Positions 21,893 to 39,768 of a stretch of 64,000 bases of DNA are shown one piece after another; the stretch's first letter is position 1; each line of letters starts with the position of its first letter. Origin of the DNA: Patescibacteria group bacterium (lineage in GTDB: Bacteria; Patescibacteriota; Minisyncoccia; Minisyncoccales; UBA10102); the NCBI GenBank assembly GCA_024239055.1, contig JANBVJ010000002.1, forward strand, positions 3,874 through 67,873, written 5' to 3'. The position numbers and the translations under genes were made by a program. Under the pieces are notes generated by a model. That model saw only the letters and a program-made list of their open reading frames with translations. It was not told the origin of the DNA and did no database searches.

Positions 21893-22050
21893 TGAACTAG
21901 ACCTCCTTCAATTGCAATTACATGTCTGTCACTTTCTGTCTGTGTTTTGTTTAGACAATATCTGCTAAGTCTGTAATCGTCATTTGTACAAATAGGACAA
22001 TCACATTTTTCTTCCTCCGATTGGTTACGGACATCTTGTTTTTGGTTCAT
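21889..22050 (-). CDS. small zinc-finger protein (53 aa; trimmed from ORF 21889..22272)
   Basis: ATG at 22050 follows the conserved promoter module directly; MNQKQDVRNQSEEEKCDCPICTND... The upstream 74 codons of the tracked ORF read through two regulatory motif copies. Confidence 0.5.
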   Translation of the reverse strand: MNQKQDVRNQSEEEKCDCPICTNDDYRLSRYCLNKTQTESDRHVIAIEGGLVQ

Positions 22051-22058
22051 ACTAAAAT

Positions 22059-22074
22059 GACAGTAGTAGTAGTT
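22059..22074 (-). promoter_or_regulatory. conserved promoter-proximal module AACTACTACTACTGTC (copy 1) with adjacent TATA-like TTTATTAA
   Basis: Identical 16-mer at 22059, 32759 and 38163, each 3-8 nt upstream of an ATG and just downstream of an A/T box. Confidence 0.6.
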
Positions 22075-22163
22075 AATAAAACCGATCACTCTATGTGCGA
22101 AGAAGTGCACAAACAGTTTTTTATATTCAAAATTTTCAAAATTGTGCGTAATGTTTCCAGTGT

Positions 22164-22173
22164 GACACGTACA
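22164..22173 (-). promoter_or_regulatory. GACACGTACA motif copy (intergenic)
   Basis: ttccagtgt|GACACGTACA|catcttaatca; one of two copies 60 bp apart. Confidence 0.6.
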
Positions 22174-22223
22174 CATCTTAATCAAACAAAAAACCTTTCT
22201 TTGCAAAAAAACGTTTCCAACAT

Positions 22224-22233
22224 GACACGTACA
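22224..22233 (-). promoter_or_regulatory. GACACGTACA motif copy (intergenic)
   Basis: ttccaacat|GACACGTACA|catctgcgtg. Confidence 0.6.
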
Positions 22234-22290
22234 CATCTGCGTGAAAAAAATAAAAAATAACGAAGAACTCACTGGAATTTTTACCCTGAC

Positions 22291-22590
22291 TTACCCTAAC
22301 ACATTCACATAGTATTTTCTTGAAACATGCAAAGATGAATCAGCAGTAGCATAAGTTTTAGCAGGGCTACTTGGCATCCCTTTTGGTAATTTACCAGAAG
22401 AATAATACCTATAATATTCTGCTTCGCTTTCAATTCCTAATTTTTTTACAACCTTTTGGGCTTTGTCATAAGGAAATAATTTGATAGGTTCTTTGAGTTC
22501 TCCACTTTCTTTTTGTCTTTTTTTAAGACATCTTCTACATAAATGAACTCCATAATTCCTTCCACAATACATACAACATGTTTCGGTCAT
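22291..22590 (-). CDS. zinc-ribbon protein with one copy of the LPKGxPxxP repeat unit
   Basis: CMYCG...CRRC, then YDKAQKVVKKLGIESEAEYYRYYSSGKLPKGMPSSPAKTY, matching repeats in 23659..24951. Confidence 0.5.
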   Translation of the reverse strand: MTETCCMYCGRNYGVHLCRRCLKKRQKESGELKEPIKLFPYDKAQKVVKKLGIESEAEYYRYYSSGKLPKGMPSSPAKTYATADSSLHVSRKYYVNVLG

Positions 22591-23411
22591 TTTTCTCTTA
22601 ACTCCTTTAGAACTGGTTGTCGAAGTTTGCCCTGTGACTTCATATATTCTACAACTGCTGTCATACCTTTGAGTTTCTTTTTCATTTTTTCTGATTGAGG
22701 ATAGCCAGTGTAGTTGACTTTGCCAACATAGTTTCCTTTCTTATCTTTTAGTTCAAGTGCTGTAATATCCCTCTTCTCAGAAGTAAAACTATCAACAATG
22801 AAATCTCTCTCAAGTTTTTTCTTGAATTTCCTCCAAGTCTCCTGCCTTACTGAATCATAAGTTGATGTTGGTTCTTTTACTACAATTCCTTCCAAGTCCA
22901 ATTTCTCAACTACCTTCAATAGATCTTTTGACTTCCATTGTGATATTAGAGTAAAAGGACTCTTTGGAATTTGTTCTAGTATTTTTCTTCTTTCTGTAAA
23001 TGGTTTTTTAGTTAGATCTTTTCCTTCAAATTTTAAAATATCAAATGCCACGAATGTAGCCGGATTTTTGTTTGATAGTAATGAAATCTTCATTTGGTTT
23101 AGTAGGTGCATTCTCTTTTGAATTGCTGGAAAGTTTGCAATTAAAGGAGTATCCAATATGCAGATCTCACCATCAATTATTGTGTCTGGTTCTAATGCCA
23201 TTGATTCTACTGCTTTACTAATGACCTCTGGAAATTGTACTGACTTTGGTTTTCCATCATCTCTAATTAGGGTAATGTCTTTAATTCCTCGTTCTTGATA
23301 GCCTACTGACATGAAACAACGCATCCCATCCATTTTTGGTTCTGCAATCCAGTCATTGAATGACCCAATCTTATCCCAATAATCTAGAAATGGTTTTGAA
23401 AAATTAGTCAA
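22587..23411 (-). CDS. lig: ATP-dependent DNA ligase (minimal, 274 aa)
   Basis: Motif I EPKMDGMR (KxDG), motif III IIDGEI, IIIa FVAFDIL, IV EGIVVK, V WRKFKKK; C-terminal OB-like region ending LRQPVLKELR. Confidence 0.85.
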   Translation of the reverse strand: MTNFSKPFLDYWDKIGSFNDWIAEPKMDGMRCFMSVGYQERGIKDITLIRDDGKPKSVQFPEVISKAVESMALEPDTIIDGEICILDTPLIANFPAIQKRMHLLNQMKISLLSNKNPATFVAFDILKFEGKDLTKKPFTERRKILEQIPKSPFTLISQWKSKDLLKVVEKLDLEGIVVKEPTSTYDSVRQETWRKFKKKLERDFIVDSFTSEKRDITALELKDKKGNYVGKVNYTGYPQSEKMKKKLKGMTAVVEYMKSQGKLRQPVLKELREK

Positions 23412-23662
23412 TTGTAACCTTCTCCTATCTTTGGTTTTTCTACTTGCTGTTCTAAAATTGAAACTGCACTCAATAACTCATCTCTAAGTAGTTTTGCAAT
23501 TCTTCTTACAGTCGGTCTTGGAATACCTATCTCGTTAACTACTTTGCTGTATAGTTCTTGTTTGTCAGTTACACCTTTTTTGATATAACTCATAATAATT
23601 TCTTTTACTATTTTTTGTTGGTTAGGAGTTCCCAAATAACCTGTCTTACTATCAAAAGTCAT
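23408..23662 (-). CDS. small HTH DNA-binding protein (paralogue of 3829..4035)
   Basis: VVNEIGIPRPTVRRIAKLLRDELL. Confidence 0.55.
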   Translation of the reverse strand: MTFDSKTGYLGTPNQQKIVKEIIMSYIKKGVTDKQELYSKVVNEIGIPRPTVRRIAKLLRDELLSAVSILEQQVEKPKIGEGYN

Positions 23663-24951
23663 TTTGTTCCTCTCCTATAGCAACTCATTGTTTCTCTTTC
23701 ATTCTGATTTTTTGAGAAGTATTTATCTGGATTTCTTGGCATATTCGATGGTAATTTTCCTTTTCTTCTTAATTCAGAAAATTGCAGTGCTGTTTTTATC
23801 CCAATTTTTTTACAGTAATCACTTGCTTCTTCAAATGTCATAAGTTCTTCTCTTTGAAGAAAACTATGCCAACCTTTCCATTCTTTTTTGAAAAAGATTC
23901 TTGGGTTTCTTGTTAGACCTTTTGGTTTATTTTTAAATGCATGAAATTCCCCACTTGTCTGAATATCATTTTGTCTGCACCAATCACTTGCCTGTTTGTA
24001 TGTAAATTCGTCTTTGTATAGCAATTCTGACCAATGTTTTTTATATTGTTTAAGTGGACTTGATGGCATTGTTTTTGGTAGTATTCCTTTTCCCTTTAAT
24101 TCAAAGAATTGAATCTGTGATGTTACTTTGTGTTTTATAATTAATTTTCTTGCTTGTTCAAATGTCAGGAATTTTATTTTCTTAGTTCCGAAGAAATCAT
24201 AATAAGTTCTCCATTCTTTTTTGTACATTCTTCGTACATTGACTGAAAAAGATTTTGGTAATAATCCACTTTTCTTTGCTTCTAACAATTGTTTAAATGA
24301 TGTAATTTTATATCTCCTAACTGTTTTTTTATGTTCTTCAAAACTCATAATTTCTCTTTTCTTTACTTTCTTTACAATTATTTTCTTTACAATTCCAGAA
24401 TCCCATTTGCTGTTCTTATTTCCTGTTAAGAAATGATTCCAGTTTATCCATCCTTTGTTTTTGTAATATCTTTGTGGTTGTTTTAGTAATTTGTTTAATT
24501 CTTTATACTTTCTTACATTTTTAGTATAATCACTATATGATTTGAATTTGTATGGTATTACTAATTTTTGAGATTCTTTGTATGAAAGTGGGTTAGTGTT
24601 TAAAAAAATTTCCCAACCTTCCCATTGATCTCTATATTGAAAACAACAATCAGGTGATTTAGGAAAACCTTTTGGTTTTGGCGTTCTTACATATTCTCTC
24701 ATACTTTTAATTTTGTTATCTTGTGCCCATTGCTTGACAATATCATATTCTATGAATTTTTTTGCTTTTGAACCACCTCTTCCCACTCTTCCCTTTCTTG
24801 AATAGAAACTACTTGGATCACTTGGTAATCCTTTTGGTAATTTTTTTGCACTAAATAGTTTATTGTAATGTGTATAACTTTCAATTCCTAATTCTTGAAC
24901 TACAGTTTGAGCATCATTATACGATAAGATTGTAGAGGATCTACCTTTCAA
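23659..24951 (-). CDS. tandem-repeat protein (about seven 55-60-aa repeats)
   Basis: Recurring units such as YNDAQTVVQELGIESYTHYNKLFSAKKLPKGLPSDPSSFY and FEEASDYCKKIGIKTALQFSELRRKGKLPSNMPRNPDKYF, several ending W.GW..FL. Confidence 0.6.
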   Translation of the reverse strand: MKGRSSTILSYNDAQTVVQELGIESYTHYNKLFSAKKLPKGLPSDPSSFYSRKGRVGRGGSKAKKFIEYDIVKQWAQDNKIKSMREYVRTPKPKGFPKSPDCCFQYRDQWEGWEIFLNTNPLSYKESQKLVIPYKFKSYSDYTKNVRKYKELNKLLKQPQRYYKNKGWINWNHFLTGNKNSKWDSGIVKKIIVKKVKKREIMSFEEHKKTVRRYKITSFKQLLEAKKSGLLPKSFSVNVRRMYKKEWRTYYDFFGTKKIKFLTFEQARKLIIKHKVTSQIQFFELKGKGILPKTMPSSPLKQYKKHWSELLYKDEFTYKQASDWCRQNDIQTSGEFHAFKNKPKGLTRNPRIFFKKEWKGWHSFLQREELMTFEEASDYCKKIGIKTALQFSELRRKGKLPSNMPRNPDKYFSKNQNERETMSCYRRGTK

Positions 24952-25226
24952 TTTCTATTCCCCTTCTCTGTTTTGATCTCCATGAAAATATCATTATGCT
25001 TTTTTATTATATCTCCTGCAAATTTTACTGCGTTGAAATGTTCTTCAAGTCTTAATCTCATTTGAAAATCATAGATGGGATCATCTTCTAACAATGCGAA
25101 CTTAGTAAATCCAAAGGATTCTAGAATTTCTCTTGCTTTACTGTTAGTTGTCTTTGCTTTGTAAATAGAAAATTTATAGATAAATGGTATTTTTGGTTCT
25201 GATTTACCCTCTATGAAAGGTGTCAT
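24948..25226 (-). CDS. hypothetical protein
   Basis: 92-aa ORF. Confidence 0.4.
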   Translation of the reverse strand: MTPFIEGKSEPKIPFIYKFSIYKAKTTNSKAREILESFGFTKFALLEDDPIYDFQMRLRLEEHFNAVKFAGDIIKKHNDIFMEIKTEKGNRN

Positions 25227-27694
25227 TAAATTTCCTCTCCACTCTTCTTCTTGATCACTGGAACTTTTAATTTTCTAGCCTCTTTTCTAGTTGGTAATAG
25301 TGAACTTTCTTTTACTACCATTAGTTCTAACATTGATTTTCTTATTTCTGCTTTCTTTGGCAGTTTTATTTTTTCTGGATTTTCACCATCTGTAACACAT
25401 CGACTTTGTTGATTCTTGTACAGTAATCTATTCCATTTGACCTTTAAATCATATTCAAATACTTTTGTACCACCACGTTGTTTGATTTTTGCCATTATCA
25501 AATGAACCCGAACTCTTGCTTTCTTTGCTCCTTTGCTTTTGCTTCTTCCTTTTCTTATCAATCTTCCAATTACTTGTTCAAACTTTGCATAAGTGAAAGG
25601 ATATACAGCAAAGATTATGTTACCAGATACTTTTTGTAAACCATCAAAACCTTCTGAAAGTGCTGATGAACAAATTAAAACATCTCTACCATTATTGAGG
25701 AATGGATCTTTACCACTTTTTTCTTTTCCTGTATAGATACCTACTGAGTATCCTTTTTCTTCAAGTCTTTGTTGTAACTTTTCTACTATTCCTGTAACAT
25801 ACTCACAATAAATTATGGTTTTTCCTTTTATCCTTTTGATTATTTCAGGGATTTTTCCTTCTAATGCTATCTGTTCATAGTTTAACCAATGCATTTTTTC
25901 TAGGTCTTTTAATGTACAACCTTCTGGTAAGTAAGATGTAACTTCAATCAGATCTTTTTCATTTAATCCAATTACTTCTATATTCAGATTTCCCATAAAT
26001 CTCATACAGTAAGGCAAAAATAGAGTATGAAGGCTTGATGCGTTTCTAACTGTACTTGTTTCTCCAACATTTTCTAATGCTTTCAATAATTCTTTATCAT
26101 TATGAGCACATAACTCTAACATTGATTTGCCTTCTTTGATGTTATTGATTACAGGTGTTGCTGAAAGACATAATACTTTGATATTTTTTAACTTTGCAAG
26201 TTTTCTAATCAAATGATCTACTGAATATCTTCTCAGAGATTTTGTCTCATCATCTCTAACTTTGATGTTTTGTGCTTCATCAAGAATTAGAAAGTCTATT
26301 GGTTCTTGTTTTATTTTTGAAATTGTTGTTCTAACATCTTTGATACTGAATTTTTCATAGTTGATTATATGGTAGTTTGCTACTCCTTTGACAAACTTGT
26401 GTGGTATCTTACCTACTGATATTACTGAATTTGGAAAACACTCCAATAGTTGTTCTCTCCATTGTTCTAAAATCGAATTTGAGCATACTATCAATGTATA
26501 TTTTGAATTTACTACCCTTGTAGATAGAATTCCTGCAATTGTTTTTCCTCTACCTGAACCTGACATGTTAAAGAATCCATCTATCTGTGTCATTATCCAA
26601 GCGTTGAAAAATTGCATTAGTGTTGGCTTGATCTTTGGATTCCAACCATCAGGAACTTTTATGTTTTTTACTTCATCATATTCAGATAAGAAAGTCTTTA
26701 CCACAGTATCATGGAATTTATTTCCATTTAGTTTTTCTTTTTTGATTTTTGCTACTACTGAATTTCTTATTTTATTTTCTTTGCCAACTGCTGATTTCCA
26801 AAAAAACTGACAAGTAATTACTACATGTTGATCAAAGGTTTTTGGATTAAGTGCACTATAATCTATATTTCTAATATCTTTTAGAAGTTTTCTAGCATCT
26901 ATATTATCTTCATCTATTATTTTTGATCTATCTTTTGATTTTGTGATTAAAGTCTGTGTATCTATTTTCTTCCCTTCTGGATTTACAACAATACCTCCAT
27001 CTGTTAATGCCATATTACCATAGGGTTTGTCAAATCTCTCGGTTCTAGCCCAATATAATAACGCCTTTCTACCTTGTGGAGTTTTTCTTAAATCCATAAA
27101 GTTGTTGAAATATGATCTTCTGAATAGATTTTTGTCTTTGAAACAACCCTCTGCATCAAACCATCGATACAAACTCCCATCTGTCCATATCTTGTAAAAT
27201 GACCAGTGTTCTCTTAATCTTATAATTACATCTCTAATTCTTTTTTTATCTACCTCATTTTTATTTTCTGTTCCAAGAAAACCATACCATCCTCCCCTAC
27301 CCTTCCAATCTTCATCAAATACATCTGGTTCCTTAACTCTGGACTTTGATGTTTTAGTTAATTCCTTTGTAAATAATTTTAAGAATTTTTTATCTTCTTT
27401 AGTGGTAACGAATAATTTTCTTTCATTAAAGAATTTTTCCAACTGTTTACTTGTATATTTTGAATATTTTTTACTCCAATTTTTTTGTACTTCGTTTAAT
27501 GCCTTTGTTATTGCTGTTCCTCGTTTCTTTTTTAGGATTCCTGTATAGTGTTTTTCCCACCAAAGTTCTTCAAGGTACTGAGTTCTTTCAACCTTCTTTG
27601 TTTTACCAGTGACACGTACATCATTGAAACCTTTTGGTAATACCTGCCCTGTGCTTAAATCAATTTTATTGTCTAAATCATTTGCCATTGCCAT
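25226..27694 (-). CDS. SNF2/SF2-family helicase (822 aa)
   Basis: Walker A MSGSGRGKTIAG; motif II LILDEAQNIK; motif III LSATPV; motif VI QVIGRLIRKG. The N-terminal region carries W.GW..FLG repeat-like elements. Confidence 0.85.
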   Translation of the reverse strand: MAMANDLDNKIDLSTGQVLPKGFNDVRVTGKTKKVERTQYLEELWWEKHYTGILKKKRGTAITKALNEVQKNWSKKYSKYTSKQLEKFFNERKLFVTTKEDKKFLKLFTKELTKTSKSRVKEPDVFDEDWKGRGGWYGFLGTENKNEVDKKRIRDVIIRLREHWSFYKIWTDGSLYRWFDAEGCFKDKNLFRRSYFNNFMDLRKTPQGRKALLYWARTERFDKPYGNMALTDGGIVVNPEGKKIDTQTLITKSKDRSKIIDEDNIDARKLLKDIRNIDYSALNPKTFDQHVVITCQFFWKSAVGKENKIRNSVVAKIKKEKLNGNKFHDTVVKTFLSEYDEVKNIKVPDGWNPKIKPTLMQFFNAWIMTQIDGFFNMSGSGRGKTIAGILSTRVVNSKYTLIVCSNSILEQWREQLLECFPNSVISVGKIPHKFVKGVANYHIINYEKFSIKDVRTTISKIKQEPIDFLILDEAQNIKVRDDETKSLRRYSVDHLIRKLAKLKNIKVLCLSATPVINNIKEGKSMLELCAHNDKELLKALENVGETSTVRNASSLHTLFLPYCMRFMGNLNIEVIGLNEKDLIEVTSYLPEGCTLKDLEKMHWLNYEQIALEGKIPEIIKRIKGKTIIYCEYVTGIVEKLQQRLEEKGYSVGIYTGKEKSGKDPFLNNGRDVLICSSALSEGFDGLQKVSGNIIFAVYPFTYAKFEQVIGRLIRKGRSKSKGAKKARVRVHLIMAKIKQRGGTKVFEYDLKVKWNRLLYKNQQSRCVTDGENPEKIKLPKKAEIRKSMLELMVVKESSLLPTRKEARKLKVPVIKKKSGEEI
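27611..27620 (-). promoter_or_regulatory. GACACGTACA motif copy, intragenic (5' part of the SNF2 gene)
   Basis: accagt|GACACGTACA|tcattgaaacc, 75-84 nt into the ORF. Confidence 0.4.
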
Positions 27695-27885
27695 TAATCA
27701 TCACTCCAAGTATAGTCATTAACTGAATCAGGATGATCTTCCTTCATGTGGGAATACAAATTTTGTTCATAGAACATTTTATCGCATTCTGGACATGATT
27801 CAAAACCTAATTCTTCTGATGTTGGATTTGGATCGATTATTCTTTTCAATTTTTTATATCCTCCTTTGATATACAATCTCCACAA
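27694..27885 (-). CDS. C2H2-type zinc-finger protein
   Basis: CPECDKMFYEQNLYSHMKEDH. Confidence 0.5.
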   Translation of the reverse strand: MWRLYIKGGYKKLKRIIDPNPTSEELGFESCPECDKMFYEQNLYSHMKEDHPDSVNDYTWSDD

Positions 27886-28006
27886 ATGTAATCCTCAGTC
27901 TTTGTGGACTTGAAAGCCATTGTAATGTGAGCATTACAAAGAGGACATTCTTCTCCATCTGTACTCCAAAATTCTTTGAAGTCACCAAAGTCACCAAAGT
28001 CATCAG

Positions 28007-28258
28007 TCATTTTTTCTTGCCTCCTTTTTTGAAAATTCTTACTGCTTCACAGTGGGAACAATCCTGTTTATTGAATTTCCAACCATCACATTCGCAGTAA
28101 AGATCGTACTTGTATTTTTTATCTGCAACTTTAACAGTGTAGTGTCCACCACTTGAGGATTGTACATAGAATATTTCTTTTGAATCTTCATCACGTTTTA
28201 CAAGTCCCTTTTTTACTAAAGACCTTGCTTTTTGAATTACACCTATTGATAGACTCAA
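28007..28258 (-). CDS. SWIM zinc-finger protein
   Basis: YCECDGWKFNKQDCSHCEAV matches the CxCx(n)CxH SWIM signature. Confidence 0.65.
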   Translation of the reverse strand: MSLSIGVIQKARSLVKKGLVKRDEDSKEIFYVQSSSGGHYTVKVADKKYKYDLYCECDGWKFNKQDCSHCEAVRIFKKGGKKK

Positions 28259-28512
28259 TTTGATCTCTCCTTTGATTCATATTCTAGAAATAGAATATCT
28301 TCTAATTCACCATCTTCAACTTCAAAACTTCTAAGTTTTTTCTTCAATAGACTTTCTACTGCAAGAATTCTTGAACCTTCTCTGTTGAATCTTCTTGATT
28401 CACGATCAATCTCTTCTTGAGTTAGTTCTTGATTAGCATGACCTGTCCAAGAATTACGTTCTCCATCGTGATTCTTATCATAAATAATTTCATACCAAGT
28501 CATTTTTACCAA
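28255..28512 (-). CDS. hypothetical protein
   Basis: 85-aa ORF. Confidence 0.4.
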   Translation of the reverse strand: MVKMTWYEIIYDKNHDGERNSWTGHANQELTQEEIDRESRRFNREGSRILAVESLLKKKLRSFEVEDGELEDILFLEYESKERSN

Positions 28513-28880
28513 GTCCTATACTTTGTTACCCTTTGAGGGTAGATTTCTGGATTATCAGGGTCACTCAAATTTCCTAAGACATCTTCAATCCATCTTACAG
28601 GTGGATTCATTTTCAGTCTTGGAATTGCAAACTTTGTAATGTCATCAATGTGAATGTAAAAGAACACATCGGATCTTCCTCCTGTTCCTTCAACGTTGTT
28701 TCCACTTTCATCTCTGTCAGGGAAAGTATGGATCACTTCGATGAATTTTACTCTGATCTTGTATTCTTTGAGCATGAATTCTTCGAACACTTTTTCCTCA
28801 CCTTTGTTTATGATTGTGCTTTGCCAAACGCAAACTTGTGTGAATGGATTGTCTTGTTTTGTTTTACTCAATTTTACCAA
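28506..28880 (-). CDS. hypothetical protein
   Basis: 124-aa ORF. Confidence 0.45.
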   Translation of the reverse strand: MVKLSKTKQDNPFTQVCVWQSTIINKGEEKVFEEFMLKEYKIRVKFIEVIHTFPDRDESGNNVEGTGGRSDVFFYIHIDDITKFAIPRLKMNPPVRWIEDVLGNLSDPDNPEIYPQRVTKYRTW

Positions 28881-31139: not shown

Positions 31140-31597
31140 GTTCCATCTTCTTCTTGATGAAACTCATCAGGATGAATTTTGTCTCTTAATTTTTCTGCTT
31201 GTTCTTTTGTTGTTTTTAGATATATTGATTCCAGAGTAATTCTCTGATCATCTCTTCGTTCATCATCTTCGTTAATGAAATATCCACCAACAGTGCCTTT
31301 GTATTTTTTTGCCAAAGTCACCAATTTTTTTGCAGTTGGAGAATAATTCTGTGTGTCTTTTGGAGCAATATTTGGATAACCAGTCAATAGTTTCTCAGCA
31401 ATTTTTGTTGGAAGTCTTTCAAAGGTTCCATAGTCTGACTTGATTCCTAATGGATACTTTGCTCCAAATAGTGGTTTCAAAGCATGTTTACTGATGTAAA
31501 CGAATGGTGCAATCAAGTCTAGTCTTTGTTTTCCTATCTTACGGAATTTCTCTTCAAGATACTTTCCGTTTTCTAAACGACCTATTACAACACTCAT
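31118..31597 (-). CDS. hypothetical protein
   Basis: 159-aa ORF immediately downstream of the Ku-like gene. Confidence 0.45.
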   Translation of the reverse strand: MSVVIGRLENGKYLEEKFRKIGKQRLDLIAPFVYISKHALKPLFGAKYPLGIKSDYGTFERLPTKIAEKLLTGYPNIAPKDTQNYSPTAKKLVTLAKKYKGTVGGYFINEDDERRDDQRITLESIYLKTTKEQAEKLRDKIHPDEFHQEEDGTWRFWWD

Positions 31598-32367
31598 TAT
31601 TTTTTGCCTCCTACATCAAAGAATGAAGATTTTTTGGTTGCTTTCTTAACAAAGTCTTTTACTAACTTTCCTTCAATAGCCTTTTGAATATTTTTTGCAT
31701 ATTCATCTTGAATTGAAGCAACATCAACTATTTTTAATGAATCAATCCATTTCTTTGCTAATGCTTTTTCTTCTTTGCTGACTTTAACATCTACTTCTTC
31801 ATCAAGTTCGTTGATTACTTCCTGATATGGAATATCAAGTAATGCAATTGCGTGTCCTTCTGGTCTGAGTATTCCTAGTTTTTCTCTGCCTGACTTTGAT
31901 GTAGTATATTTTACAACTATGTCCTTTCCGTTTGATACTGCACTGTACAATATTTTGAATGCTTGTAATCCATCATCTTCATTCTCTGCAAGTGCTAATT
32001 CATCTTTGTTGAATTCTCTAGGTAGAATGTAACTGCCACCAATTGTAACTCTTGTATCTTCTTTTGGTCTTGCTCCAAGAATTTCTATTTTACTTACTTG
32101 TTTTTTTATGCTTTTCAATAATTCCTTATCGATAACTTTTCTTTCATCTGCTGAGTAAACAAATGCAGATAAAACTTCACCTGATGGAATTACTTTGCCA
32201 CAGTCAACATTTTTACAAACATCTTGTCTGCCTACATCGGATTCACAATGAGGGCATGTATTTGTGAATGGTGACTTGCTATAAGATGTCTTTACAAAAC
32301 TACAAAGTCTAATTGGAATATTCTTAGTTCCTAACTTGATTAACAGATTGAAATTTGTATGTACCAT
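31597..32367 (-). CDS. ku: Ku-like DNA end-binding protein
   Basis: Collinear with bacterial Ku as I recall it: LGTKNIPIRLCSF (cf. FGLVNVPVKVYSA), Cys-containing insert, KIEILGARP...GGSYILPRE (cf. IEVLEFV...RSYFLEPD), DIVVKYT...REKLGILRP, then a helical tail. Confidence 0.65.
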   Translation of the reverse strand: MVHTNFNLLIKLGTKNIPIRLCSFVKTSYSKSPFTNTCPHCESDVGRQDVCKNVDCGKVIPSGEVLSAFVYSADERKVIDKELLKSIKKQVSKIEILGARPKEDTRVTIGGSYILPREFNKDELALAENEDDGLQAFKILYSAVSNGKDIVVKYTTSKSGREKLGILRPEGHAIALLDIPYQEVINELDEEVDVKVSKEEKALAKKWIDSLKIVDVASIQDEYAKNIQKAIEGKLVKDFVKKATKKSSFFDVGGKK

Positions 32368-32705
32368 TATGAAAATACACCTCTTCGTGTTTGATAGTTT
32401 ACGTTACTTGCTAGTTCTTCTGTGATTTCATCATCTGCACCTGATTGGTCTTGGCTAATTCCACCTGACAATTTATTGATCAAGTCTGAAACGAGTAATT
32501 TGATTTGCTCAGTTTCAAGTGTGACACTTGTTTGAGTAGATTTTCCAAAAACGTCAGTTCCCTTTATGTGAAAGTTTACACCTTGTTTTTGAACACCAAC
32601 TTTGTTACTTCCTCTGCCAACTTGAGTGATTGATAAGAAACCGATTTTTTCTCCTGAATCATCATCTGTGTACTCATTTGCGAATGTGCGAATACCTGAT
32701 GACAT
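32367..32705 (-). CDS. hypothetical protein
   Basis: 112-aa ORF; GGAGG about 12 nt upstream of the ATG, inside the mini-uORF. Confidence 0.5.
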   Translation of the reverse strand: MSSGIRTFANEYTDDDSGEKIGFLSITQVGRGSNKVGVQKQGVNFHIKGTDVFGKSTQTSVTLETEQIKLLVSDLINKLSGGISQDQSGADDEITEELASNVNYQTRRGVFS

Positions 32706-32753
32706 TTAGATTTCTGCCTCCGATTGATTACGGACTTCATTATTGTGGTTCAT
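32706..32753 (-). CDS. mini upstream ORF (15 codons)
   Basis: MNHNNEVRNQSEAEI then TAA abutting the ATG of 32367..32705. Homologous in DNA and peptide to the N-terminus MNQKQDVRNQSEEEK of 21889..22050. Confidence 0.35.
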   Translation of the reverse strand: MNHNNEVRNQSEAEI

Positions 32754-32758
32754 GAAAA

Positions 32759-32774
32759 GACAGTAGTAGTAGTT
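32759..32774 (-). promoter_or_regulatory. conserved promoter-proximal module AACTACTACTACTGTC (copy 2) with TATA-like TTAAATGC
   Basis: Identical 16-mer; the first ATG is 5 nt downstream. Confidence 0.6.
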
Positions 32775-32889
32775 GCATTTAAGTCTGATCGCAATTTGAT
32801 TATGAATATAATGGACTGTTTGTGCATTTGCTCGCACAAATCAGGTCTTTAACGCTGGCACAGTCGTGGAGCAAGCAGGTCTCAAGTGA

Positions 32890-32899
32890 GACACGTACA
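32890..32899 (-). promoter_or_regulatory. GACACGTACA motif copy (intergenic)
   Basis: Exact 10-mer followed by cctctgattcaatgag; 9 nt past the stop of 32908..33165. Confidence 0.6.
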
Positions 32900-32907
32900 C
32901 CTCTGAT

Positions 32908-33165
32908 TCAATGAGAAAAAAACGGTATTACGCCTAAGTCCGAATCCTTGAATTGATACTCATATTTTATGTCAGTTGAAAACTTAATTCTTTTTGAATT
33001 TGATGGTTTGAATGGATATGTAGGACTGCCATATTTTTCCAAGTCTGAAAAATATTTTGAATCTAAATTGTGTTCAAATTTTTCGTGTATAGCAATAGAT
33101 AGTGATCCTTTACGGATTGCCTTACAGTAGGCACATTGAAACTTCCTTTTCCTTGAGTATTGCAT
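32908..33165 (-). CDS. C2H2-type zinc-finger protein
   Basis: FQCAYCKAIRKGSLSIAIHEKFEH. Confidence 0.5.
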   Translation of the reverse strand: MQYSRKRKFQCAYCKAIRKGSLSIAIHEKFEHNLDSKYFSDLEKYGSPTYPFKPSNSKRIKFSTDIKYEYQFKDSDLGVIPFFSH

Positions 33166-33221
33166 ATACCGTTCATCATAATTCGATTAACACCTGAATT
33201 CTTAAACTTTGTTTCACTTGT

Positions 33222-33231
33222 GACACGTACA
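33222..33231 (-). promoter_or_regulatory. GACACGTACA motif copy (intergenic, upstream of 32908..33165)
   Basis: cacttgt|GACACGTACA|tatcttaatca; about 15 nt upstream of TATA-like AAGTTTAAGAA on the coding strand. Confidence 0.6.
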
Positions 33232-33362
33232 TATCTTAATCAAAAATTTGGTATTTTCTAGCATCGACTTTGTGCTTACATTCACGATTTGAGCAAGTAA
33301 CATAAGTGTCACGTTTGGATTTTGTAATCCAAACACGATCACATTCAGGGCATTTGAGTTTC

Positions 33363-33599
33363 CTAGTGTCCAAATGTTGCTCCATATTTTCCATCTCCTG
33401 TAACAATTACTTTATTATTTTGGTGATCAAGTTTCTTGTAGAATTCATCAGCAAAACTCAGAATTTCACCATCTATTAGTTTGATCTCGTTTTCCTGTAG
33501 GTACTCAAAGATTCTGATACAGCATTCTTCTAATGCTAGATCTATCTCACTTAGAACTTCTTCCTTAGTTTTTTTCTCAGTCAATCTTGCATCTCCCAT
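33363..33599 (-). CDS. hypothetical acidic protein
   Basis: 78-aa ORF. Confidence 0.4.
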   Translation of the reverse strand: MGDARLTEKKTKEEVLSEIDLALEECCIRIFEYLQENEIKLIDGEILSFADEFYKKLDHQNNKVIVTGDGKYGATFGH

Positions 33600-33997
33600 T
33601 TTGCTTCTGAAACAATTTCTTGACAGTCACCACAAACATTTCCTTTGTCTCCATAATTTTCAAATGGAAGGCTACATACTCTACAAGTTATTTCTGTCAA
33701 AGTCCCACATCCTTTCCACCAAATAATGCATCAGTGAATTCCTTTGAATGTTCCTTTGTAAGATGTTCTGTAGAACCAACTCCATCTATTTTGAAATTTT
33801 CCATTATCTTATCACAGAAGGGACATTTTTCTCCGTTACCGATTGCGATCAATTTTTGATTACCTCTTTTATTTTCTTTGTGTATTTCTTACTGTAGTAT
33901 TCGCAACTACAAGTTCTAACGCTACACATGTAACCATGAGCACCATAATCCTTTCCATATTCATGTTCACTTCTCATGTGACCACATTTACAGACCA

Positions 33998-34198
33998 TTA
34001 CTTCTTCACCTCTTCAAAAAATCCCTTGATTACATTGTCTGGATTTGCTCTCAATGCTGGATCTTTATTACCAAATGATTTGTATATTATATCCATCATT
34101 CTAGGATGGAACTCATTCAAGTGATCATCAATTTCACTTTTCTTTATCACTTTACCACATGGTTTGTTTTTGCATCTTACTAACGTGTCTTTACTCAT
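33998..34198 (-). CDS. zinc-finger protein
   Basis: CKNKPCGK...H..FH. Confidence 0.4.
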   Translation of the reverse strand: MSKDTLVRCKNKPCGKVIKKSEIDDHLNEFHPRMMDIIYKSFGNKDPALRANPDNVIKGFFEEVKK

Positions 34199-34397
34199 TC
34201 TTTATCACTCCATAACTTTTAACGCCTTTATTATTGCAATATTTACATCCATTTCCTTCACATTCAAGACATCTATTTTGATTTTCTGAATCCCATCTCA
34301 TATCAGTACAAACACAATCAATAGGATCTGTTGGTTCATCACCATCATAGAAAATGTTCTGTTTTGCACCATTACAGATTTTACATGGAGTAGTCAA
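34191..34397 (-). CDS. cysteine-rich protein
   Basis: CKICNG...CVC...CLECEGNGCKYC. Confidence 0.45.
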   Translation of the reverse strand: MTTPCKICNGAKQNIFYDGDEPTDPIDCVCTDMRWDSENQNRCLECEGNGCKYCNNKGVKSYGVIKNE

Positions 34398-34825
34398 TTT
34401 CTACTCTCCTGTGGTTTGGTTTTTTCAATCCATTGATTGATTGCCTCAGTGATTGCAAATGATTCTTTACTTTGATATTTGATTCGTATTGACTTCATGA
34501 TTTTTGCATGTAAAACTTTACGTTTTTCAAGTGATTTCTGAATCCTTAATGGATTTTTTCTTGCATAAGAAAATTCTAGTGCTCTTCTTGTTTCTTCAAC
34601 TTCATCTGCATATTCCAATAACAACTTCAAATCAATTTTATGATTCTTAATAGTAATTTTTTCTGGTTTCATGGTGACGTTCTTTTCGTTTTTATGAACC
34701 CATCTTACTGTTCTTTGGTCTTTGTCACCACAGTCATCGCACTTTATTCCATCAGGAAAATTGTAGCAACCATCCTCTGGTTTGAATACATATCCACATA
34801 CTGAGCAGTTTGGATCTTTGCTCAA
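34394..34825 (-). CDS. zinc-ribbon protein
   Basis: CSVCGY...CDDCG at the N-terminus. Confidence 0.45.
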   Translation of the reverse strand: MSKDPNCSVCGYVFKPEDGCYNFPDGIKCDDCGDKDQRTVRWVHKNEKNVTMKPEKITIKNHKIDLKLLLEYADEVEETRRALEFSYARKNPLRIQKSLEKRKVLHAKIMKSIRIKYQSKESFAITEAINQWIEKTKPQESRN

Positions 34826-34907
34826 ATGAAAGTCACTCCTAGTCTTGCTACTTCTAATGAACCGTATGTGATTACAGTTATTGCAGTTAGAAAAAAAGAT
34901 GTGAGAA

Positions 34908-35225
34908 TCATTTTGTTTTTACCTCACTTATTGAGTGTATGACAAAGACCTCATTGAATTTTTCAATAATCTCTTCTATGTCTGTGCTTCGGAACTGAGA
35001 ATAGAAGTCAACATCAAAGTTGAAACTATCTCTTCCGTTCTTATTACTGATTTTTTCAGTAACAGATGAAACTTTGAATTCACCTTTTTGAAAAAGTCTG
35101 ATGACTTCAAGGTTGCGAGCATTGGTTGTAGCATCTTCAACGTTCTGCTTTACTTCTTTGCCTTCGAGTTTTATCGGTATCAACACACCATTGAAGGAAA
35201 TGGTTGCTTTGAATTTGGTTGTCAT
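34908..35225 (-). CDS. hypothetical protein
   Basis: 105-aa ORF. Confidence 0.4.
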   Translation of the reverse strand: MTTKFKATISFNGVLIPIKLEGKEVKQNVEDATTNARNLEVIRLFQKGEFKVSSVTEKISNKNGRDSFNFDVDFYSQFRSTDIEEIIEKFNEVFVIHSISEVKTK

Positions 35226-35977
35226 TGTTTTTGTCTCTCCTTCATCTCAACTATTGTTTTGTAAGTCCCTGCAATTTTGTCTTTGAGTGCCAAGATTTTA
35301 TCCAAGTTGAATTGGTATTTTCTTGCCTCATCTTCGTCATCTGAATACCTGTTGATTAATTCTGTAGCATCGACTGATTGTTTGTCTATTGCCTCAACGA
35401 TTCTGTGAATTCCTCTGATAGTCTTTTTAGGATCTTCTGCAACATCATCTGCCAAGTCCAACAATTTTCTGTGTGCACTTTCAAGATGTATTTCCATATC
35501 TTCGAATCTGTCAGTTAGAACCTTCTTGAATGCCTTTGAGACACCTTCGATTGATCTTGGACTTTCAAGATTGAATCCCATTACATGACAGTTGACATCT
35601 TCATCTTCTCCCCATGCTTTAAGAAATTCTTCTGCACCAGTAATATCCAAGTCCTTACCATCATTGTCTTTTACAACCTTTAGTGGCAAAAGATACAATG
35701 AATCGCTAAGATACATTGCTCCCATTCTCAGTAGTTTTTCTCTGAAACGGTTTCTTTTTGCGTTGCTTCTTTCTGAACTACTGTAGCCTCTTTGTTCTGC
35801 TATCTGTGCTTCTGTTCTGTTATGTTGATTTATGTATCTGATGTGTCTTGACCAGTTTCTTCCATGAATGTCGTATCCTACAAGTAGATACTTTGTAAGA
35901 AACTCACTCTTTGATAGTGAGATGGATTTGTCTTTCTCCATCTGTTCTATCAATTTTTCTACGGATTTAAGAGGCAA
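35222..35977 (-). CDS. hypothetical protein
   Basis: 251-aa ORF. Confidence 0.45.
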   Translation of the reverse strand: MPLKSVEKLIEQMEKDKSISLSKSEFLTKYLLVGYDIHGRNWSRHIRYINQHNRTEAQIAEQRGYSSSERSNAKRNRFREKLLRMGAMYLSDSLYLLPLKVVKDNDGKDLDITGAEEFLKAWGEDEDVNCHVMGFNLESPRSIEGVSKAFKKVLTDRFEDMEIHLESAHRKLLDLADDVAEDPKKTIRGIHRIVEAIDKQSVDATELINRYSDDEDEARKYQFNLDKILALKDKIAGTYKTIVEMKERQKQ

Positions 35978-35978
35978 T

Positions 35979-36425
35979 TTAGAGATGCTCCTTTGGATTA
36001 AATTCTTGTGCTTTGTTTATTGCACCTGTCTGTGTACAGAGTCTTTCAATCTCTTGTTTTGCAGAGTCGATTAACTGATGATAGTGTTTGTTTTCTGCTG
36101 TAAAGTCGCTGAACATTGCGTTGAAAATTTGACTTCCATTACCAAGTTTTGTGACCTTTAGATCGTACTTGGTTTGTTTCTCAAGTTTTTTCTTCTCTGT
36201 TTCACTGAGTTTCTTTCCTCTCTGTGCTTCTTCTCTTTCTACTGCTTTGAGATAAACTTCCTGACCTGCTGGTTTTTCAAGTTTCAATAATGCTTGTTGT
36301 TCTGCTCTTGTTCTTGCAAGTTTGTTTGGATAGTCAATGTAGACTGCAAGTTGTTTTTGAATTGCAGTTAATTCTTCTGACATTACGCTACCATCAAGGA
36401 ATGGATTGTCTTTCAATGCTCTCAT
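35979..36425 (-). CDS. hypothetical coiled-coil protein
   Basis: 148-aa ORF, K/E/Q-rich. Confidence 0.45.
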   Translation of the reverse strand: MRALKDNPFLDGSVMSEELTAIQKQLAVYIDYPNKLARTRAEQQALLKLEKPAGQEVYLKAVEREEAQRGKKLSETEKKKLEKQTKYDLKVTKLGNGSQIFNAMFSDFTAENKHYHQLIDSAKQEIERLCTQTGAINKAQEFNPKEHL

Positions 36426-36829
36426 TTGTTCTCAACCTCAACTGCTTCTTTCTGTTCTTCTGCATCTTCAACAACTTCTTCTGAGTCCTCTTCGGTCTCA
36501 GTTTCTTCTTCCTCAGTTTGTTTTCGTTTAGCCTTTTTCTTTGGTTTCTTTTTGATTTCGTAACCAAGTGCATCTAGAACTTCTGTGATAATGTCTCTAG
36601 TCATCTCATCGAATTCTGATTCATACATCTCTTCAACGAGTTTGTCAACTTCTTCCTGAGTGAGAGGTCTGCCTTCTGATTCAAGGACTGCTCTAATTTG
36701 CTCATCAGACTTTGAACAAAATGCTCCTATATTTTCCTGAATGAACTCCCAATCTGCTTCTTGGAGTTCTAGTTGCTCCATTAGGCGTTTCTTTGCCCTT
36801 CGAAGTCGTTCTCTCCATGAAAGACTCAA
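36422..36829 (-). CDS. hypothetical acidic protein
   Basis: 135 aa; C-terminal KKKPKKKAKRK then an E-rich tail. Confidence 0.45.
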   Translation of the reverse strand: MSLSWRERLRRAKKRLMEQLELQEADWEFIQENIGAFCSKSDEQIRAVLESEGRPLTQEEVDKLVEEMYESEFDEMTRDIITEVLDALGYEIKKKPKKKAKRKQTEEEETETEEDSEEVVEDAEEQKEAVEVENK

Positions 36830-37161
36830 TTTAGAATACCTCCTTCAAAAATTTTGGTACTGATGTTTTCTAATTCAACATCTGGTGAATGTCTACCATG
36901 AACATACACATTTTTACCGTTTTTGTCTAGGTATGAATACTGTGTAGAAGTTTGGTATCTATGTTGAAAACCATAGGTACAGTCAATTTTTCTTCTTCTA
37001 CCAAGTCTAAGTTTTCCAACTTGAACGTTGATAGATTTGAAGTGGTCATAATCTTTTTGTGCATCTTCTTTAGTGCCAAAACACATGACACCAAAGTTTT
37101 TTGCGTTGAAATTCCATTGTTGGGCTTTGTCAAATACCCAATCTATGCTTGATTTACTCAA
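36826..37161 (-). CDS. hypothetical protein
   Basis: 111-aa ORF; preferred over the alternative-frame ORF 36927..37133. Confidence 0.45.
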   Translation of the reverse strand: MSKSSIDWVFDKAQQWNFNAKNFGVMCFGTKEDAQKDYDHFKSINVQVGKLRLGRRRKIDCTYGFQHRYQTSTQYSYLDKNGKNVYVHGRHSPDVELENISTKIFEGGILN

Positions 37162-37862
37162 GAGGCATCTACCTCCTGAATAATTGCTTTCTTGTCAACA
37201 GTGATTGTTGAAGCGTTCTTGTACAATGCAAGTTCAGTTCTGTCACCAAAACCATAACTACTTCCATAGTATTGCTGACCGTTTTTGATGTATCCATTTC
37301 TGATTGTTATAGAGTCACCTTCATTGACTGAATCTGTCTGACCATTCCACAAAGTAATTACGATGTGATCTTCTCTTTCATCTTGAAGAGTTACTTCACA
37401 GACTTTGTAATTCTGACCAGTTTTCTTTGATGTTACATCTCTGACTTTGGTTTTTTTGATGATAGTTCCACGAACATTGATTCCTTTTGTTATTTGGTAT
37501 CCTTGAATCACTTGCAAGTGGGTTGTTGTTAATAGTTCATACAATTCCTTGTTTCGTTTGATATTTGCATCACTCTCGAACATTTGTTCAATTGTTACAA
37601 ATTCAGGTAAAACAAAGGTTTGCTCAACTACTGTAGGTTGACAGTCTTTGTATTTTTTTGTCTCTGTATGTTTTGCAACTTGTTGTAATGCTCTGTCCTG
37701 ACCTGATGCTCTGAATTCTTTTCCACATTCACATGTTGGTTTGAATCCCAATGTGAGATATGCACCACGCAAATGTTTTCCTTCTAGATCCTCAAAAAGA
37801 GTTTCAGGTGAACCAATAAAAGTTAGTTCAGTATCCATTGCTTGGTTGTAGTAGCCTGTCAA
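37158..37862 (-). CDS. OB-fold (RPA-like) single-stranded DNA-binding protein
   Basis: VRGTIIKKTKVRDVTSKKTGQNYKVCEVTLQDEREDHIVITLWNGQTDSVNEGDSITIRNGYIK fits the archaeal/eukaryal RPA OB-fold pattern. Confidence 0.55.
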   Translation of the reverse strand: MTGYYNQAMDTELTFIGSPETLFEDLEGKHLRGAYLTLGFKPTCECGKEFRASGQDRALQQVAKHTETKKYKDCQPTVVEQTFVLPEFVTIEQMFESDANIKRNKELYELLTTTHLQVIQGYQITKGINVRGTIIKKTKVRDVTSKKTGQNYKVCEVTLQDEREDHIVITLWNGQTDSVNEGDSITIRNGYIKNGQQYYGSSYGFGDRTELALYKNASTITVDKKAIIQEVDAS

Positions 37863-38158
37863 TTGTGACTACCTCCAATTGGTTTTGTGAAGCCGAAGTT
37901 ATTCTCAATTCCGTTGAAGTGATCAACGATGAGCAATTCTGCTTCAAGTTTGAAATTTCTATGTCTGAGATTTAACTGTCGTTTTACAACTACAGGTCTG
38001 TCAGATACAGACTTTGTGCCAAAAAAATTTGAGGCTTGAATATGTTCTGAATCAAGTGCGAGAACTGATAAGTGCTCATCTTGATTCATGCCGGAATCTC
38101 TTACAAGTAGATCTCCTAATGTGAAAGATTCCAAGTTGGTACTATTCTTGTGAGTCAT
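37859..38158 (-). CDS. hypothetical protein (first gene after promoter module copy 3)
   Basis: MTHKNSTN...; shares the MTHKN start with 41764..42600. Confidence 0.45.
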   Translation of the reverse strand: MTHKNSTNLESFTLGDLLVRDSGMNQDEHLSVLALDSEHIQASNFFGTKSVSDRPVVVKRQLNLRHRNFKLEAELLIVDHFNGIENNFGFTKPIGGSHN

Positions 38159-38162
38159 AAAA

Positions 38163-38178
38163 GACAGTAGTAGTAGTT
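38163..38178 (-). promoter_or_regulatory. conserved promoter-proximal module AACTACTACTACTGTC (copy 3) with TATA-like TTTAATAG
   Basis: Identical 16-mer; ATG 4 nt downstream; GACACGTACA copy 27 nt further upstream. Confidence 0.6.
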
Positions 38179-38204
38179 GCTATTAAACCTGTCGAATCGA
38201 CCCT

Positions 38205-38214
38205 GACACGTACA
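38205..38214 (-). promoter_or_regulatory. GACACGTACA motif copy (intergenic)
   Basis: Exact 10-mer about 50 nt upstream of ATG 38158. Confidence 0.6.
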
Positions 38215-38364
38215 CAGTTGAGTTGTCCGTTAAATCGCACATACACTTACTCATATAGAAAAAATCTCCTTCCTAAGTCATGGTTAGTTTGGTCATATCA
38301 AGATGGAGAAATCCCTGAAAAATCGACACCAGAGGGTTAAGAGTTATCAGGGAAAATCTCATCT

Positions 38365-39705: not shown

Positions 39706-39768
39706 TGGTATCCTATCATTCCAATAAGGGCTTTAAAAGAATTTCTGTGATCGCTTCATATCGTATGC

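Follow-up and report, generated by a model that had tools for sequence, protein, structure and literature searches.

Promoter cassettes with a putative ACN-repeat operator and a probably leaderless mini-ORF in a virus-like, probably archaeal element from Arctic Mid-Ocean Ridge sediment

Introduction

What is the role of a 16-mer that recurs without change behind three A/T-rich boxes, a few nucleotides (nt) before the start codons that open three long gene blocks? The case arises in a 64,000-nt stretch of contig JANBVJ010000002.1 (assembly GCA_024239055.1, positions 3,874 to 67,873; deposited for a Patescibacteria group bacterium), referred to in full as the window, which is probably part of an uncultured virus-like mobile element of at least ~108 kb and ~33% G+C from sediment of the Arctic Mid-Ocean Ridge (AMOR). 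An earlier note on the window had taken the 16-mer, AACTACTACTACTGTC, as part of what looked like a reused initiation cassette, and a 15-codon open reading frame (ORF) behind one of its copies, the mini-ORF, as an upstream ORF for leaderless entry and coupled re-initiation. The explanation that we favor, with a probability of roughly 0.58, is that the window carries modular promoters of archaeal type, that the 16-mer is an operator made of ACN triplets, and that the mini-ORF is the leaderless remnant of a former first gene. Almost nothing is known of gene regulation in the mobile elements of uncultured mesophilic archaea, and the locus presents an explicit promoter grammar, open to tests in vitro, in which an upstream motif and a palindrome precede a TATA box, a putative operator that slides, and a leaderless AUG.

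Three copies of the 16-mer head long gene units

Exact copies of the 16-mer lie at 22059–22074 (copy 1), 32759–32774 (copy 2), and 38163–38178 (copy 3), all on the minus strand, which is the coding strand, as the earlier note had placed them. No other copy is found in the window at up to two mismatches, for which 0.06 matches are expected by chance, and none of 100 shuffled sequences reaches three copies. When three mismatches are allowed, a degenerate fourth copy, AACTATAACTACTCTC, appears on the minus strand at 41403–41418, where it overlaps the TATA box of a GHKL-ATPase promoter. Each exact copy adjoins an A/T box on its upstream side, as had been described: TTTTATTA (22074–22081, minus strand) for copy 1, CTTAAATG (32776–32783, minus strand) for copy 2, and GTTTAATA (38181–38188, minus strand) for copy 3. 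The distance from the 16-mer to the ATG, earlier given as 3–8 nt, is in fact 8 nt for copy 1, 5 nt for copy 2, and 4 nt for copy 3.

Copy 1 heads a unit of ~8 kb that encodes a 53-amino acid (aa) Cys-rich protein, small membrane proteins, and a HerA-like ATPase. The unit behind copy 2 measures ~10.5 kb and comprises the mini-ORF, a 112-aa gene, Ku, a receiver-domain (REC) protein, SNF2, and a DNA ligase, and copy 3 heads a unit of ~3.3 kb that includes a 99-aa gene and the gene of an RPA-like OB-fold protein, among others. The 99-aa first gene (37859–38158, minus strand) has no Shine-Dalgarno (SD) sequence and is 69% identical to its orthologue in the related contig L055.

Relatives of the element were found in JGI, ENA, and NCBI sediment metagenomes through homologues of the RPA-like, 112-aa, and MscS-like proteins. 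Public data sets in which the family is present are SRR8799001, SAMN10404973, SAMN29179945, and JGI 3300023223 and 3300022690. These related contigs (L046, L047, L048, L052–L056, and L081–L086) form eight lineages, and in those that carry the box the flanking proteins are 70–88% identical. The promoter orthologous to copy 3 has a box in all relatives examined, and two to four box copies are present per related contig. Contigs L049–L051 and the more distant L087–L088 have neither the box nor the upstream motif M2 described below.

The distance from TATA box to ATG is the conserved quantity

In 13 promoters with a box in direct orientation, drawn from seven related contigs, the A/T box begins 29–31 nt from the ATG; in the window the values are 31 nt for copy 1, 30 nt for copy 2 (to the ATG of the mini-ORF), and 30 nt for copy 3. 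The same spacing is found at the box-free promoters at 12472, at 41386, and in L083, and it is 27 nt in one promoter whose box is inverted. The gap between the end of the A/T box and the 16-mer or its counterpart ranges from −1 to +7 nt in the same 13 promoters, and the gap between the end of the box and the ATG from 1 to 8 nt. As the distance from TATA box to ATG stays fixed while the box moves, it is this distance that is conserved, and not the position of the 16-mer.

The first genes also differ from internal genes in how they start. All nine first genes at TATA+30 begin with ATG and lack an SD sequence, whereas ATG is the start codon of 17 of the 35 SD-led internal genes (Fisher p = 0.0044), and the base at −1 of the ATG is C or T in every box promoter. 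In the 20 kb with public gene calls (window 21000–41000, L001 gene calls), nearly all internal genes have GGAG or AGGAG 9–16 nt upstream; 18 of the 35 start with TTG or GTG, roughly half of the genes with TTG, and their starts often overlap the preceding stop codon by 4 nt (TTGA or ATGA). Sigma-70-like sites are not enriched in the window (55, against 70 expected from the shuffle background), nor are intrinsic terminators (10, against 7.7), and none of the cassette promoters passes a sigma-70 scan. The borders of transcription units are oligo-T runs without a hairpin. Directly before the TATA box, at the position where a purine-rich TFB-recognition element (BRE) would lie, GATCA(N1-3) or CGACA(A/G)G is conserved.

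On the strength of the spacing, the pyrimidine at −1, the ATG-only starts without SD sequence, and the absence of sigma-70 enrichment, we read the A/T boxes as TATA boxes of archaeal type, with transcripts that quite probably start at or beside the ATG. The near-leaderless transcripts that the earlier note had proposed are borne out to this extent. Leaderless first cistrons, SD-led distal cistrons, and termination-reinitiation have been described in archaea (PMC7531240).

Two first genes of the window, unrelated in other respects, open with the same five codons, ATGACTCACAAGAAT (MTHKN; 38144–38158 and 42586–42600), and the gene at 41386 starts with the similar ATGTCCCACAAGGAT. Shared first codons of this kind suggest selection on the sequence that is transcribed or translated first in leaderless mRNAs.

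The box is a separable, lineage-specific module

All box copies of a genome are of one type. The ACT type (four ACT triplets followed by GTC, AACTACTACTACTGTC) is found in the window and in L046, L052, L054, and L081/82, and the ACC type (three ACC triplets, one ACT triplet, and AAT; ACCACCACCACTAAT or ACCACCACCACTAAA) occupies orthologous promoters in L047, L048, L053, L055, and L085, with four copies in 20 kb of L055. A third type, ACCACGACTACGACTACT, is present at the RPA-like promoter of L083/84. Across all five box variants the AC of each triplet is invariant, the third position alone varies, and the repeat number is nearly constant. The degenerate box of the GHKL promoter, too, follows the type of its genome, with ACTACTCTC in ACT-type and ACTACCACTAAT in ACC-type genomes. 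Although the flanks of the copy-3-type cassettes have little in common with those of the copy-1 and copy-2 types, the box type and the 3-nt tail are the same in each genome. In 281 kb of family DNA, 29 of 35 runs of (ACN)≥4 sit just downstream of a TATA box.

The position and orientation of the box are variable, and it can be missing altogether. In L047 (2550–2564) and in L083/84, an inverted box lies directly behind a TATA box, before a divergent gene. In L055 at 18668, the box still adjoins the TATA box, but the ATG is located 22 nt from it, behind a normal SD sequence. At the L083 counterpart of the copy-2 promoter, the box is missing and the 29–30-nt spacing from TATA box to ATG is kept. 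Alignment of the three regions with those of relatives, which the earlier note had suggested, shows a conserved frame from TATA box to ATG and a conserved junction with the next gene, but it does not support a 16-mer fixed within the cassette.

Since the box slides, inverts, and is dispensable, yet evolves in concert at loci with dissimilar flanks, we take the 16-mer, at slightly better than even odds, for the operator of a trans-acting regulator; a role in the core promoter or the leader fits it less well. Its place within the footprint of TFB and RNA polymerase suggests repression, as for F55 of the virus SSV1 and other archaeal repressors.

Two coding interpretations of the ACN run were rejected. 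As Thr codons of a poly-Thr leader peptide, it would need an upstream start codon, and there is none in frame; in copy 3, a TAG follows seven codons on. Read as NYYYC, it meets in-frame stop codons in other copies and types, again with no start codon. For copies 1 and 2 of the ACC type, the frame that leads into the ORF downstream gives AAC CAC CAC CAC TAA.

In L083 (5920–6084) and L084 (4870–5025), TATAAGTAAAA is followed by the inverted box GGTGGTAGTAGT, and the start codon (ATG) of a GmrSD_N-like gene lies ~130 nt further on. This arrangement may be a long leader or, alternatively, a box-controlled small RNA gene.

The cassette extends to an upstream motif and a palindrome

The cassette is larger than the earlier note had described, for it comprises two further motifs, M2 and M3, ahead of the TATA box, the box, and a shared 5′ module, and elsewhere in the window some of its parts are combined differently. 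M2 (core GTGTACGTGTC) is present in 11 minus-strand copies in the window, with 5′ ends at 39779, 38215, 33232, 32900, 27621, 22234, 22174, 16703, 13532, 10957, and 2625, and in a degenerate copy near 12568. Each of the three cassettes carries one or more copies of the core (22164–22174 and 22224–22234 in cassette 1, 32890–32900 in cassette 2, and 38205–38215 in cassette 3, all minus strand). The motif spans ~32 nt with the consensus ttGAATCAGAkGTGTACGTGTCaCAcTtGAAAC, which can also be written GAATCAGAG-GTGTACGTGTC-N5-GGAAAC. Among the nonredundant copies of the family, 36 of 37 are on the coding strand, usually behind an oligo-T run and 15–115 nt before a TATA box (90–115 nt in the copy-1 and copy-2 types); some copies lie inside ORFs, for example in the SNF2 N terminus. 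M2 may be an upstream activating site. Box-free promoters are preceded by M2 as well (39779, 33232, 13532, and 12568), which indicates that the modules combine freely.

M3 is a palindrome, TGTGC-N8-GCACA, located at 22094–22111 in cassette 1, at 32821–32838 in cassette 2, and, with one mismatch, at 38224–38241 in cassette 3. In the window it is confined to the three cassettes, apart from a one-mismatch match at 11017 that is probably due to chance, and it is conserved in relatives. M3 looks like the binding site of a dimeric regulator, distinct from the ACN box.

A 5′ module is shared by unrelated first genes

Downstream of the ATG, copies 1 and 2 are identical at 33 of 40 positions, in agreement with the ~80% identity given in the earlier note, and copy 3 is unlike them there (14–17 of 40). 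The shared 5′ module covers the first ~45 nt, ATG A(A/C)(C/T) CA(A/C) AA.. G(A/T)CCGTAA..AATCGG(A/T)GG(A/C)AGAA, and includes an SD sequence. It is found in copies 1 and 2, in the GHKL gene at 41386, and in part in the gene at 12472, and the proteins behind it are otherwise unrelated. In copy 1 it supplies the first 15 codons of the 53-aa Cys-rich ORF (21889–22050, minus strand), a gene that is replaced in the corresponding locus of L046 by a 23-codon ORF with an ATTGA overlap. In the GHKL-ATPase gene the module is fused in frame (41333–41386, minus strand): a leaderless ATG is followed by 18 codons, GGTGG, and an internal ATG. Gene callers differ between relatives as to the start of this gene, with a preference for the internal ATG that follows GGTGG, and the gene may have two isoforms.

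The gene at 11438–12472 has its own TTTATAAA box 30 nt before the ATG and no ACN box. The related segment that had been noted in its 5′ end is present as a partial module, AAGTCCGTAAAATCGGAGGCAGAA (12428–12451, minus strand), although it lies partly in another reading frame, so the likeness holds at the nucleotide level. The idea of a reused cassette stands for the 5′ module, which recurs, and needs revision for the 16-mer, which slides, inverts, and can be absent. A hairpin, CCG...CGG, over the SD sequence of the module was considered and rejected as too weak, with four pairs, −4 kcal/mol, and one compensatory change.

The mini-ORF is probably the remnant of a longer first gene

In copy 2 the module is a free-standing ORF of 15 codons, MNHNNEVRNQSEAEI* (32706–32753, minus strand), whose TAA abuts the ATG of the 112-aa gene at 32705 (32367–32705, minus strand), exactly as had been reported. 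The GGAGG within it (32717–32721) is likewise real and is separated from that ATG by 11 nt; this is the usual SD spacing of the window genome. The mini-ORF is homologous to genuine N termini, as the earlier note had it, and relatives conserve the junction between it and the gene that follows. Its length is 15 codons in L046, L052, L053, L054, and L081, where the junction reads TAAATG, TAAAATG, or TAATG; in L047 it is 27 codons, and the junction is TAATTG. Orthologues of the 112-aa gene start with ATG or TTG. In seven contigs the offset from stop to start is −1, 0, or +1, and GGAGG or AAGGAGG lies 11–12 nt before the start. All codon differences between the 15-codon mini-ORFs are nonsynonymous, with no synonymous change, while about half of those in the downstream gene are synonymous; the peptide is thus not under selection, whereas its length and the junction are.

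The origin of the mini-ORF is indicated by L055, where the same leaderless ATG opens an ORF of 151 aa whose TGA overlaps the TTG of the 112-aa-gene orthologue, which is an internal cistron in L055 and in L056. Because L055 retains this 151-aa counterpart at the same ATG, the mini-ORF can with good confidence be regarded as the remnant of a former 151-aa first gene after internal deletion in frame, and this accounts for it better than a purpose-built upstream ORF. The 23-codon ORF at copy 1 of L046, in place of the 53-aa Cys-rich gene, is read as a second instance of such a deletion. The AUG, the frame, and the junction have been kept through independent deletions (15, 27, and 151 codons), which fits delivery of ribosomes to a leaderless start followed by re-initiation. 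For a functional coupling of this kind, with leaderless entry and then SD-assisted re-initiation, we see about an even chance; independent SD-led initiation at the 112-aa gene is a possible alternative. The series 151 → 27 → 15 codons implies that first genes can be deleted with the leaderless start and the junction kept, which bears on the translation of distal cistrons in archaea. First genes without an SD sequence escape public gene callers: the caller missed the 99-aa gene (37859–38158) and every mini-ORF.

A model for the cassette promoters

Copies 1 and 2 are ordered as oligo-T run, M2, M3, TATA box, box of (ACN)4 with its 3-nt tail, and ATG, with M3 placed ahead of M2 in copy 3. In the model that we propose, transcription would start at the ATG, 29–31 nt after the beginning of the TATA box, and yield a leaderless first cistron, and the 16-mer would not be required for initiation. 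A putative regulator encoded by the element would bind the box as double-stranded DNA, where TFB and RNA polymerase sit, and repression would be its simplest mode of action. Three or four operons could be co-regulated in this manner, namely those for RPA-like/recombination functions, for Ku, SNF2, and ligase, for the HerA-like ATPase, and, weakly, for the GHKL gene. Between lineages, regulator and operators would have changed specificity together, giving the ACT, ACC, and mixed ACN types. At copy 2, the original first gene would have been deleted in frame to 15 codons; ribosomes would enter at the 5′-terminal AUG and terminate at the TAA that abuts the next start, and translation of the 112-aa gene would follow, either through re-initiation assisted by the SD sequence or through initiation led directly by it.

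Several observations weigh against this model. A genome-wide scan for a TATA box followed at 30 nt by ATG is unspecific, with 41 matches on the coding strand and 32 on the other, so that the spacing argument rests on the orthologous promoters. Orientation independence is represented by two cases, and the inverted box of L047 could be a recombination scar. The host of the element is probably archaeal, a domain inferred from its expression signals alone, and the family is missing from IMG/VR and from the GTDB representative genomes. A recognition code with a 3-bp period is unusual for a double-stranded DNA operator. Finally, no clear DNA-binding domain was detected with Pfam and NCBIfam in 18 nearby proteins. 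The candidate regulator among the nearby genes, a 251-aa protein of the copy-3 operon (35222–35977, minus strand), is only weakly PaaX-like (Pfam PaaX_M E = 6e-4, below the cut-off; Foldseek PaaX E = 0.1), with a model pLDDT of 74. It is conserved save for an indel-rich segment after GRNWSRHI that differs among the three box types, a correlation that is confounded with phylogeny.

A bolder version of the model, in which a new kind of regulator of archaeal mobile elements reads the box one triplet at a time, AC being constant and the third base conferring specificity, and in which the mini-ORF acts as a bicistronic adaptor, is in our view doubtful. Candidates for such a reader would be a protein with zinc-finger-like units in tandem, one that forms filaments, or a factor that recognizes the melted strand. 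If it were true, regulator and operators would have been reprogrammed in sister lineages (ACT, ACC, and mixed) to give mutually insulated regulons, and a leaderless mini-ORF with an embedded SD sequence would serve as an adaptor by which any cargo gene could be plugged in behind a leaderless promoter throughout this family of ~100-kb elements. The ACT, ACC, and mixed ACN variants provide a natural set for finding the cognate regulator and its recognition code.

Alternative explanations for the box

The box might instead be transcribed and act as an RNA element, with a start further upstream, at a second A/T box or near M2, and an SD-free leader that recruits ribosomes or an RNA-binding protein. 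The G-poor coding strand of the box, its 3-nt period, and its free third position do recall recognition of RNA or of a single strand, for which the A-R-N sites of Hfq and the triplet sites of TRAP provide a comparison, and the first genes lack an SD sequence. A second A/T-rich stretch ~34 nt further upstream in cassette 2, which would permit a leadered RNA containing the box, also counts in favor of an RNA element and against the leaderless start that we prefer. However, the box slides by 1–8 nt relative to the ATG while the distance from TATA box to ATG is fixed, inverted boxes occur behind TATA boxes, and in L055 at 18668 a normal SD sequence follows the box. In addition, the copy-3-type cassettes have M2 and no A/T box upstream, and the ATG-only starts with a pyrimidine at −1 are as expected of 5′-terminal AUGs. 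An RNA element is thus unlikely. We judge it similarly unlikely that the box has no function and is a trinucleotide microsatellite hitch-hiking in a cassette spread by duplication, recombination, and gene conversion, its identity within a genome reflecting recent homogenization. Such spread would agree with the ~150 nt of similar sequence in cassettes 1 and 2 together with their common 5′ module, with the first genes swapped or deleted between relatives, which indicate frequent recombination there, and with the promoter of L083 that has no box. It would not explain why the copy-3-type cassettes, with dissimilar flanks, have the same box type and 3-nt tail in every genome, or why the box persists across relatives whose flanking proteins are 70–88% identical. 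Substitutions at the third triplet position only and a near-constant repeat number point to constraint, and (ACN)≥4 runs are rare outside promoters (6 of 35).

The box could also be a positive core-promoter element that marks a temporal class and is read by a TFB or TBP paralogue or by an initiation factor encoded by the element, in keeping with its constant place in the TFB/RNA polymerase footprint directly behind the TATA box and with the subset of operons that it marks. We regard this as improbable, since a positional variation of 8 nt and inversion fit poorly with an initiation machinery whose contacts depend on strand and position, and since an orthologous promoter without the box works, to judge from its conserved architecture. 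Least probable of all is that the element is a bacteriophage in which the 3′ half of M2 (GTGTCA) is a −35 element, the A/T box a −10 element, and the box a short untranslated leader. GTGTC(A/T) does lie 15–17 nt upstream of TTTAAT, TATATT, or TATAAG at copy-3-type promoters of five lineages, and Ku and an ATP-dependent ligase, a typical bacterial or phage pair, are joined in one unit. In the copy-1 and copy-2 types, by contrast, M2 is 90–115 nt from the A/T box; the cassette promoters fail the sigma-70 scan, and neither sigma-70 sites nor intrinsic terminators are enriched. The first genes lack an SD sequence where nearly every other gene has one, PHROGs is nearly empty of matches, and no DNA match was found in a phage collection.

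Comparison with known systems

In SSV1, F55 has operators built of ATAGATAG repeats in tandem, which overlap the transcription start site (TSS) or the BRE of the promoters T5, T6, Tind, and Tlys, and binding sites of SvtR and AvtR are known from rudi- and lipothrixviruses (PMC5569661). The window resembles these systems in that a short repeat in the BRE/TSS region is common to several promoters of one virus (PMC5569661). There, a small virus-encoded regulator switches a set of operons together; here the regulator is only proposed. Unlike the 11-bp tandem or imperfectly palindromic sites of F55, SvtR, and AvtR, the box is an (ACN)4–6 run with a 3-nt period and a free third position; moreover, the host is uncultured and mesophilic, and the operator type switches between close relatives. 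A virus-specific regulatory sequence has been described around strong early promoters in SIRV2 and other archaeal viruses (PMC11065993), and the window shares with these a conserved BRE/TATA core with virus-specific flanks that are common within a genome and differ between viruses (PMC11065993). A box directly downstream of the TATA box recalls, too, the virus-specific ‘GTC’ motif of SIRV in that position (cited in PMC5569661). In contrast to the Sulfolobales virus promoters, which head single small early or anti-defense genes, those of the window head long replication/repair operons and an ATPase module, and the element is unrelated to the Sulfolobales viruses. On these comparisons, the system is one of archaeal-virus-type promoter regulation with two unusual traits, a type-switching triplet operator and reusable leaderless 5′ modules, as read from the promoter sequences.

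For the mini-ORF, leaderless short ORFs of mycobacteria offer a parallel in which a 5′-terminal AUG opens an unannotated mini-ORF before the annotated first gene (PMC4633059; bioRxiv 10.1101/834739). Translation of such ORFs can influence the operon, and some sense amino-acid supply through codon runs (PMC4633059; bioRxiv 10.1101/834739). Unlike these bacterial cases, the mini-ORF of the window has a peptide that is not conserved and no codon run, and it is, with good confidence, a deletion remnant. Termination-reinitiation coupling at overlapping gene pairs has been reported in archaea and bacteria (Huber et al. 2019, in the form in which it is discussed in PMC7531240 and PMC12548453). The junctions described here are like such pairs in that the stop abuts or overlaps the next start (TAAATG, TAATG, or ATTGA) and the SD sequence lies inside the upstream ORF. 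They differ in that the upstream partner is only 15–27 codons long, and the coupling is putative. The ‘bicistronic design’ of Mutalik et al. from 2013 reportedly combines a promoter with a short leader ORF that contains an SD sequence and ends in a stop/start overlap, and is said to render expression independent of the cargo gene. Whereas that design is engineered in Escherichia coli with an SD-led leader ORF, the arrangement in the window is natural, with leaderless entry, and any benefit of it is putative.

The element and its gene content

The sequence of the window is present in identical form in ENA ERZ23499938, from an AMOR sediment sample (PRJNA529480), as scaffold_78 (107.8 kb) and scaffold_1394. 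Window positions 1–14149 correspond to scaffold_1394 and those from ~14150 to 64000 to scaffold_78, so that the window must derive from a longer assembly of the same element. In the additional 8.4 kb beyond window position 1, where the sequence extends at the low-coordinate end only, no further box was found. Searches of IMG/VR yielded no relative: the 16-mer gave 43 matches and the extended M2 pattern 24, single per contig and chance-like, the M2-pattern matches having unrelated G+C content and no box, and a search with Ku was also without a relative. Profile searches of the GTDB representative genomes with the RPA-like and MscS-like proteins returned no family member, and the phage collection gave one weak match, to a terminase-like protein. 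In PHROGs, nine of ten large window proteins have no family.

Nearly all ORFs of the window are on the minus strand, and the G+C content is ~33%. Recognizable genes encode an ATP-dependent DNA ligase, an SNF2 helicase, a receiver-domain protein, Ku, an RPA-like OB-fold protein, a GHKL ATPase, an MscS-like channel, and a HerA/terminase-like ATPase; no tRNA genes were found in the window.

A paralogous family whose products start with MVKGFKD or KGFTKDG has ATG starts at 62163, 58902, and 48653 and internal TTG or GTG starts at 56823, 46307, and 44467. A second repeated promoter and leader, ‘...tattttagagtagaATGGTCAAAGG’, is common to three of its members and has an A/T box ~37–40 nt upstream, which suggests another promoter class with a short leader. 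Tandem repeats of ~55 aa with the signature GKLPKG(L/M)PSxPxxxY, which match Pfam INT_rpt weakly, are found at 23659–24951, at 22291–22590, and in the N terminus of 25226–27694, with about seven copies in a 430-aa protein and single copies in two neighbors.

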